This document shows positions 19,752-19,951 of a stretch of 64,000 nucleotides of DNA, piece by piece. The notes under the pieces were generated by a model. It saw only the letters and a list, made by a program, of their open reading frames with translations. It had not been told where the DNA came from and made no database searches. A program made the translations under genes and the position numbers. Source of the DNA: Escherichia coli (GTDB lineage Bacteria > Pseudomonadota > Gammaproteobacteria > Enterobacterales > Enterobacteriaceae); assembly GCF_003334815.1 (NCBI RefSeq), contig NZ_QOWO01000008.1. One strand, given 5' to 3'. The first letter of the stretch is position 1. Each line of letters opens with the position of its first letter.

Positions 19752-19777
19752 CAGAAAAAACCCCGCCGGTGGCGGGG
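19752..19777 (-). terminator. Rho-independent terminator of fliC
   Basis: On the minus strand: hairpin ccccgccaccggcgggg followed by TTTTTT. Confidence 0.6.
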
Positions 19778-19809
19778 AAGCACGTTGCTGACAAATTACC
19801 ATTCATGTT

Positions 19810-19910
19810 GCCGGATGCGGCGTAAACGCCTTATCCGGCCTACAAAAATGTGCGAATTCAATAAATTGCAATTCAACTTGTAGGCCTGATAAGCGCAGCG
19901 CATCAGGCAA
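19810..19910. repeat. BIME: two inverted REP (palindromic unit) elements in the fliC 3' region
   Basis: gccggatgcggcgtaaacgccttatccggcctaca and the inverted copy tgtaggcctgataagcgcagcgcatcaggca are typical enterobacterial REP sequences. Confidence 0.75.
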
Positions 19911-19951
19911 TTTGGCGTTGCCGTCAGTCTCAGTTAATCAGGTTAGGACGA

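Follow-up and report, generated by a model that had tools for sequence, protein, structure and literature searches.

The closest described system is FliX, a small RNA (sRNA) of Escherichia coli K-12 reported by Melamed et al. 2023 (eLife 12:RP87151, PMC10578931). K-12 FliX is about 200 nt long and is gone in a fliA deletion, marking it as sigma-28-dependent (PMC10578931). It is depleted by a 5'-phosphate-dependent exonuclease and is therefore processed from the fliC mRNA rather than separately transcribed (PMC10578931). A shorter form of about 100 nt, FliX-S, "includes one of the REP sequences downstream of fliC", and Hfq co-immunoprecipitation showed both forms to be bound by Hfq (PMC10578931). 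Overexpression of FliX in K-12 lowered flagella number, flagellin, and fliC mRNA, and FliX repressed rplC, rpsS-rplV, and rpsQ reporter fusions representing the S10 operon (PMC10578931). Footprinting, together with compensatory rpsS-M1 mutations, confirmed that FliX pairs with rpsS, and a chromosomal fliX-M1 mutant of K-12 had a slightly higher number of flagella and an increased level of fliC mRNA, with modest phenotypes overall (PMC10578931). The authors proposed that sRNA-directed cleavage within coding sequences provides a late brake on flagellar synthesis (PMC10578931). Published RIL-seq data sets of EPEC and Salmonella also hold FliX (PMC10578931).

FliX shares membership of the sigma-28 regulon and an Hfq-binding 3' stem-loop with FlgO (flgL 3' UTR), UhpU (uhpT 3' UTR), and MotR (motA 5' UTR), and FlgO, like FliX, is processed from a late flagellar mRNA (PMC10578931). 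In contrast, the sequences and targets of these sRNAs are unrelated, and FliX is the one described with REP elements (PMC10578931). REP elements also build BIME-1, in which a single y and a single z1 REP in inverse orientation flank an L linker that is long and conserved and in many cases carries an IHF site (PMC3333891).

Here we analyzed a stretch of 64,000 nucleotides from an E. coli assembly, referred to as the window. A preliminary description had placed two inverted REP elements (19810..19910) and an intrinsic terminator (19752..19777) directly 3' of the fliC stop on the minus strand and had pointed to such a REP-bearing 3' UTR as an sRNA source, without naming an sRNA. In the open reading frame list, fliC occupies 19952-21664 (-) and fliA 18913-19632 (-), so the flagged interval is the fliC 3' UTR. 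With high confidence, we identify this interval as the fliX locus, an annotated sRNA gene that is already known. The features of the locus are as follows.

21741-21767, minus strand: sigma-28 fliC promoter, TAAAGGTT-N11-GACGATAA, read from the sequence
19952-21664, minus strand: fliC, encoding a 570-aa flagellin, the parental mRNA of FliX (open reading frame and NCBIfam)
19755-19948, minus strand: FliX orthologue, 194 nt, from 3 nt after the fliC stop to the terminator U-run
About 19909-19880, minus strand: y-type REP (palindromic unit), the 5' REP in FliX, GCCTGATGCGCTGCGCTTATCAGGCCTAC (19908-19880), identical in K-12
19844-19879: linker between the y and z REPs, 36 nt, of the BIME-1 "L" type, holding the FliX-S 5' end (19859) and an IHF-like site
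19755-19859, minus strand: FliX-S orthologue, 105 nt, with z-type REP, seed, and terminator
19810-19843, FliX on the minus strand: z-type REP (palindromic unit), inverted relative to the y REP, GCCGGATGCGGCGTAAACGCCTTATCCGGCCTAC as read on the plus strand, kept in FliX-S
19781-19796, minus strand: FliX seed region AAUUUGUCAGCAACGU, with the M1 triplet GCA at 19788-19786
19755-19777, minus strand: fliC intrinsic terminator, which is the FliX 3' stem-loop and U-tail (terminator scan)

Beyond the fliC stop codon (19952-19954), the 3' UTR on the minus strand consists, in order, of 42 nt of unique sequence, the y REP, the 36-nt linker, the z REP, 32 nt of unique sequence, and the terminator. On the other side of fliC, fliD is divergent and starts from 21930 (+). 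The two REPs were found at essentially the positions first proposed for them, as a single inverted pair arranged tail-to-tail around the linker at 19844-19879. For both the y and the z pattern, 100 shuffles of the window gave 0 expected chance matches, and a chance origin of the pair is excluded. As expected of REP DNA, a 319-nt intergenic query found matches at many sites in each E. coli genome (median, 29). Elsewhere in the window, a second z-type REP-like palindrome is present at 57387-57416 (+), with 2 mismatches against the degenerate pattern.

The identification with FliX is based on location and sequence. The RefSeq record of MG1655 annotates an ncRNA fliX (b4827, "small RNA FliX") of 195 nt beginning 3 nt past the fliC stop. 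This b4827 sequence equals the FliX sequence that we rebuilt using the primers with which Melamed et al. 2023 cloned it, and the FliX 5' end in K-12 agrees with cloning primer SM044 (PMC10578931). Aligned to MG1655 fliX, the window interval 19948-19755 (-) was identical at 187 of 195 positions, and it likewise lies on the fliC strand, from just past the stop to the fliC terminator. Thousands of E. coli genomes, K-12 included, share the wider fliC-fliA intergenic region at 96.8-100% identity. The suggestion of an sRNA source in this REP-bearing 3' UTR was thus well placed, as the locus corresponds to the published and annotated FliX (b4827; PMC10578931). The region is better annotated as fliX than flagged as a candidate sRNA, and for the window itself this conserved copy of a characterized sRNA gene is of little import. 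No FliX match was obtained in Rfam, either for the region at E<=1 or for the whole window at the gathering threshold; the matches in the region were REP-derived only.

The window copy shares with K-12 FliX its locus, strand, boundaries, two REPs, linker, seed, terminator stem, and sigma-28 fliC promoter. It differs by 7 substitutions, a U6 in place of U7, and another parental flagellin allele (570 aa in the window versus the 498-aa H48 flagellin in K-12). Two of the substitutions fall at nt 2-3 of FliX (19947 and 19946; UUG -> UCC), so the 5' processing site could shift in this allele. One linker base differs at 19854, which is nt 6 of the short form: the K-12 primer SM673 gives GAATTTGCACATT for the FliX-S 5' end (PMC10578931), and the window reads GAATTCGCACATT, which would place the FliX-S start at G19859. 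The remaining 4 substitutions (19804, 19801, 19800, and 19798) cluster in a patch immediately 5' of the seed. In an alignment of 11 E. coli copies, whose parental flagellins differ, with sizes of about 436 to 670 aa by annotated gene spans, the variants of the window recurred in other E. coli and are ordinary polymorphisms.

The seed, UGUCAGCAACG with its M1 triplet, is the same as in K-12. In the published seed mutant this triplet, GCA at 19788-19786, is changed to CGU, as deduced from primer SM644 (PMC10578931). The stretch AATTTGTCAGCAACGT containing the M1 GCA showed no variation in the 11 long-form E. coli copies. Next to it, the polymorphic patch reads AUGAAUGGUAA in the window (19798-19804) and AUAAAGCGCAA in K-12. 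This patch (-) is predicted to pair with the FliX-S 5' end at 19846-19859, forming 5 bp in the window versus 3 bp in K-12. By eye, no covariation was seen in this helix among the 11 strains, where the patch varies and the partner strand is constant.

At the 3' end, the terminator stem CCCCGCC-ACC-GGCGGGG at 19777-19761 (-) forms 7 of 7 G:C pairs around a 3-nt loop and is followed directly by TTTTTT at 19760-19755. The terminator of the preliminary description was recovered as this G+C-rich hairpin and T-run, located 3' of fliC on the same strand. The stem is the same as in K-12, and the U-tail is U6 here versus U7 in K-12; U6 was the more frequent of the two among the 11 aligned E. coli sequences. 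Every E. coli class examined keeps the hairpin, strains with a short UTR included. The stem-loop and U-tail are presumed to be the Hfq-binding module of FliX.

Upstream, the window and K-12 share 99.2% identity across the fliC-fliD intergenic region, and the sigma-28 promoter sequence is conserved. The sigma-28 consensus is TAAAGTTT-N11-GCCGATAA. The preliminary description held that sRNA production by this allele is not visible from sequence. Strictly, this holds; nevertheless, the sequence argues strongly for production by the fliC allele of the window, because 187 of 195 positions are identical, the seed and the terminator are intact, and the sigma-28 promoter is conserved. The flagellin itself scored 729 bits against the NCBIfam FliC/FljB family (cutoff 619), and NCBIfam reaches only this generic family as far as the H type is concerned. 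Among the 67 genomes with at least 99% identity to the flagellin variable domain, no serotype names were found.

By analogy with K-12, we infer that sigma-28 dependence, processing, Hfq binding, targets, and phenotype also apply in the strain of the window. In such a mechanism, sigma-28 RNA polymerase would start fliC transcription at the class 3 promoter of the gene and end it at the terminator at 19777-19755. A cut just past the stop codon would release FliX, of about 194 nt in the window, and a second cut within the BIME linker would yield FliX-S, of about 105 nt, with the z REP hairpin, the seed, and the terminator. Both forms would keep the terminator hairpin and U-tail and bind Hfq through them, and the two REPs and their linker, a BIME-1-type element, would make up the structured body of the RNA. 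The single-stranded seed UUUGUCAGCAACGU, just 5' of the terminator, would pair within the fliC, rplC, rpsS, and rpsQ coding sequences. Such pairing would lower the expression of fliC and of S10-operon genes, acting as a late brake on flagellar synthesis. The S10 operon lies outside the window.

The predicted fold of the RNA bears on what the REPs do. For the 194-nt RNA, a folding energy of -68.4 kcal/mol was predicted (z = -3.5), with 0 of 200 shuffles as stable, and for the 105-nt 3' part the prediction was -45.4 kcal/mol (z = -4.8). In the predicted fold of the 194-nt RNA, both REPs join in one long hairpin. REPs are known mRNA stabilizers (review, PMC3333891), and the label "REP-stabilized" for the fliC 3' UTR is a reasonable inference. 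Taken further, the REP pair could be a 3' stabilizer of the fliC mRNA only, acting as a barrier to 3'-5' exonucleases, with any fragments being inert decay intermediates that have no role in trans. The long predicted hairpin fits this explanation, as do the mild phenotypes of the chromosomal fliX-M1 mutant in K-12 (PMC10578931). However, the seed lies outside the REPs and is nonetheless constant across 11 divergent fliC alleles while neighboring bases vary, and in K-12 both the compensatory-mutation evidence for rpsS pairing and the binding of Hfq (PMC10578931) speak against inert fragments. We therefore consider a purely stabilizing role improbable. Stabilization is compatible with the sRNA role and is plausible as an added function of the FliX region.

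The REP pair and its linker resemble BIME-1, also described as a RIP element, in having one tail-to-tail y/z pair, a long conserved linker, and an IHF-like motif. The 36-nt linker matches Rfam ES036 (CssrF) above its gathering score, and a second locus carries the complete y-linker-z unit at 83% identity. The IHF-like site, ATTCAATAAATTG at 19856-19868 (+), agrees by sequence reading with 8 of the 9 specified positions of the IHF consensus, with one mismatch. The z REP of the window is typed at a level above the z1 and z2 subtypes, and, unlike in the BIME-1 description, the element here would be transcribed within an sRNA.

Two Rfam families were rejected as explanations of the locus. The ES036 match lies at 19846-19887 (+), antisense to FliX, and scores 38.1 bits, with the gathering score at 37.6; it covers the BIME part only, on the opposite strand and barely above threshold. 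What this family seems to describe is the L linker of BIME-1, not an sRNA tied to one locus. With naRNA4 (RF02564), a REP325-derived nucleoid-associated RNA, the locus has a z-type REP hairpin in common. The score of 41.9 bits is below the gathering score of 59.5, and the alignment covers only one REP hairpin out of the 77 positions in the model, so the locus is not a naRNA4 member.

The likeness to BIME-1 also raises a role mainly at the level of DNA, in which bound IHF or gyrase would make the element an insulator between the very strongly transcribed fliC and the fliA promoter just downstream. The y/z pair with its conserved long linker and the 8 of 9 matching positions of the IHF-like site are in keeping with such a role, and the fliA promoter region begins within about 100 bp of the terminator. 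Comparison among E. coli genomes speaks against it. A long fliC 3' UTR, covering at least 80% of the intergenic region, was found in 3503 of 5426 complete E. coli genomes, and the rest matched only from the terminator on. In EC6622 (L003:2479-2520) and DA33137 (L004:2478-2520), 19-22 nt separate the fliC stop from the terminator, with neither REPs nor seed. These two short UTR forms were represented by 816 and 202 genomes, at least 1018 together, and the long-form and short-form counts leave about 900 further genomes. Because at least 1018 genomes lack the BIME and keep the same terminator and fliA promoter, the BIME is not required for the fliC-fliA arrangement, and we regard such insulation as very unlikely to be the main role of the element.

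The same comparison bears on the sRNA itself, as FliX appears to be missing from a sizable minority of E. coli. We put forward, tentatively and with slightly less belief than doubt, that the fliC 3' UTR is a presence/absence polymorphism, with about 65% of complete genomes carrying the long form, as the window does, and at least 19% a short form with the same terminator. FliX braking of both flagellar and ribosomal-protein synthesis would then vary between strains and may travel with flagellin (H-antigen) alleles, and the FliX-fliC pairing site may differ between alleles, among them those of the window and K-12. No mention of a within-species UTR polymorphism was found in the parts of Melamed et al. 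2023 consulted (PMC10578931), and the short-UTR observation may be new. Strains without FliX would be natural knock-outs for testing the role of FliX in motility control and in flagellin expression in pathogens. The comparison is also mildly useful in extending beyond K-12, where FliX was studied, by showing that the seed is constant in the long-UTR copies aligned.

Predicted pairing between FliX and fliC differed between the two flagellin alleles. In a duplex scan with the short seed, the best K-12 fliC site was at about +400 with a predicted -18.3 kcal/mol, and the window allele reached only -8.5 kcal/mol. Here, at about 21245-21270, K-12 reads GUGCUGGCAAAAA and the window GUGUUGUCCAAAG, with synonymous and non-synonymous changes (VLAK -> VLSK) that are predicted to disrupt the pairing. 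Conversely, a site at about +1655, the C-terminal GUGCUGGCAAAAG at about 19995-20015, was predicted to pair better in the window allele than in K-12 (-19.8 versus -14.3 kcal/mol). Both intervals are approximate conversions from positions relative to the fliC AUG. With the long seed, the scan of FliX against fliC returned loop-rich, unconvincing duplexes. On these predictions, FliX self-regulation of fliC in the window allele is uncertain, and allele-dependent FliX-fliC pairing sites are a lead, not a result.

An exact 25-mer spanning seed and terminator was searched in one genome per GTDB species and found in one contig only, the search being too strict to give a phylogenetic range. This contig, JAIJJM010000281.1 (3.9 kb; L014), is labeled as a Collinsella sp. 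MAG. A Collinsella origin was rejected, as the contig is 97% identical to the E. coli sequence of the window over the fliA-fliC 3' end and over the fliC 5' end-fliD, with a differing flagellin middle. Its placement in a Collinsella MAG reflects mis-binning of E. coli DNA.

Two further observations concern the surroundings of the locus. At gathering level, Rfam matches in the window comprised DsrA, RseX, and five tRNAs, at 41467-41553 (-), 49889-49978 (+), 9661-9960 (-), 59706-59792 (-), and 60784-60856 (+), in keeping with the part of the E. coli chromosome where fli, dsrA, and rseX lie. Downstream of the fliC terminator, a perfect sigma-28 -10-like octamer, GCCGATAA, is present at 19658-19665 (-), 26 nt upstream of the fliA start, and the fliA promoter region with this octamer is identical in long-UTR and short-UTR strains.
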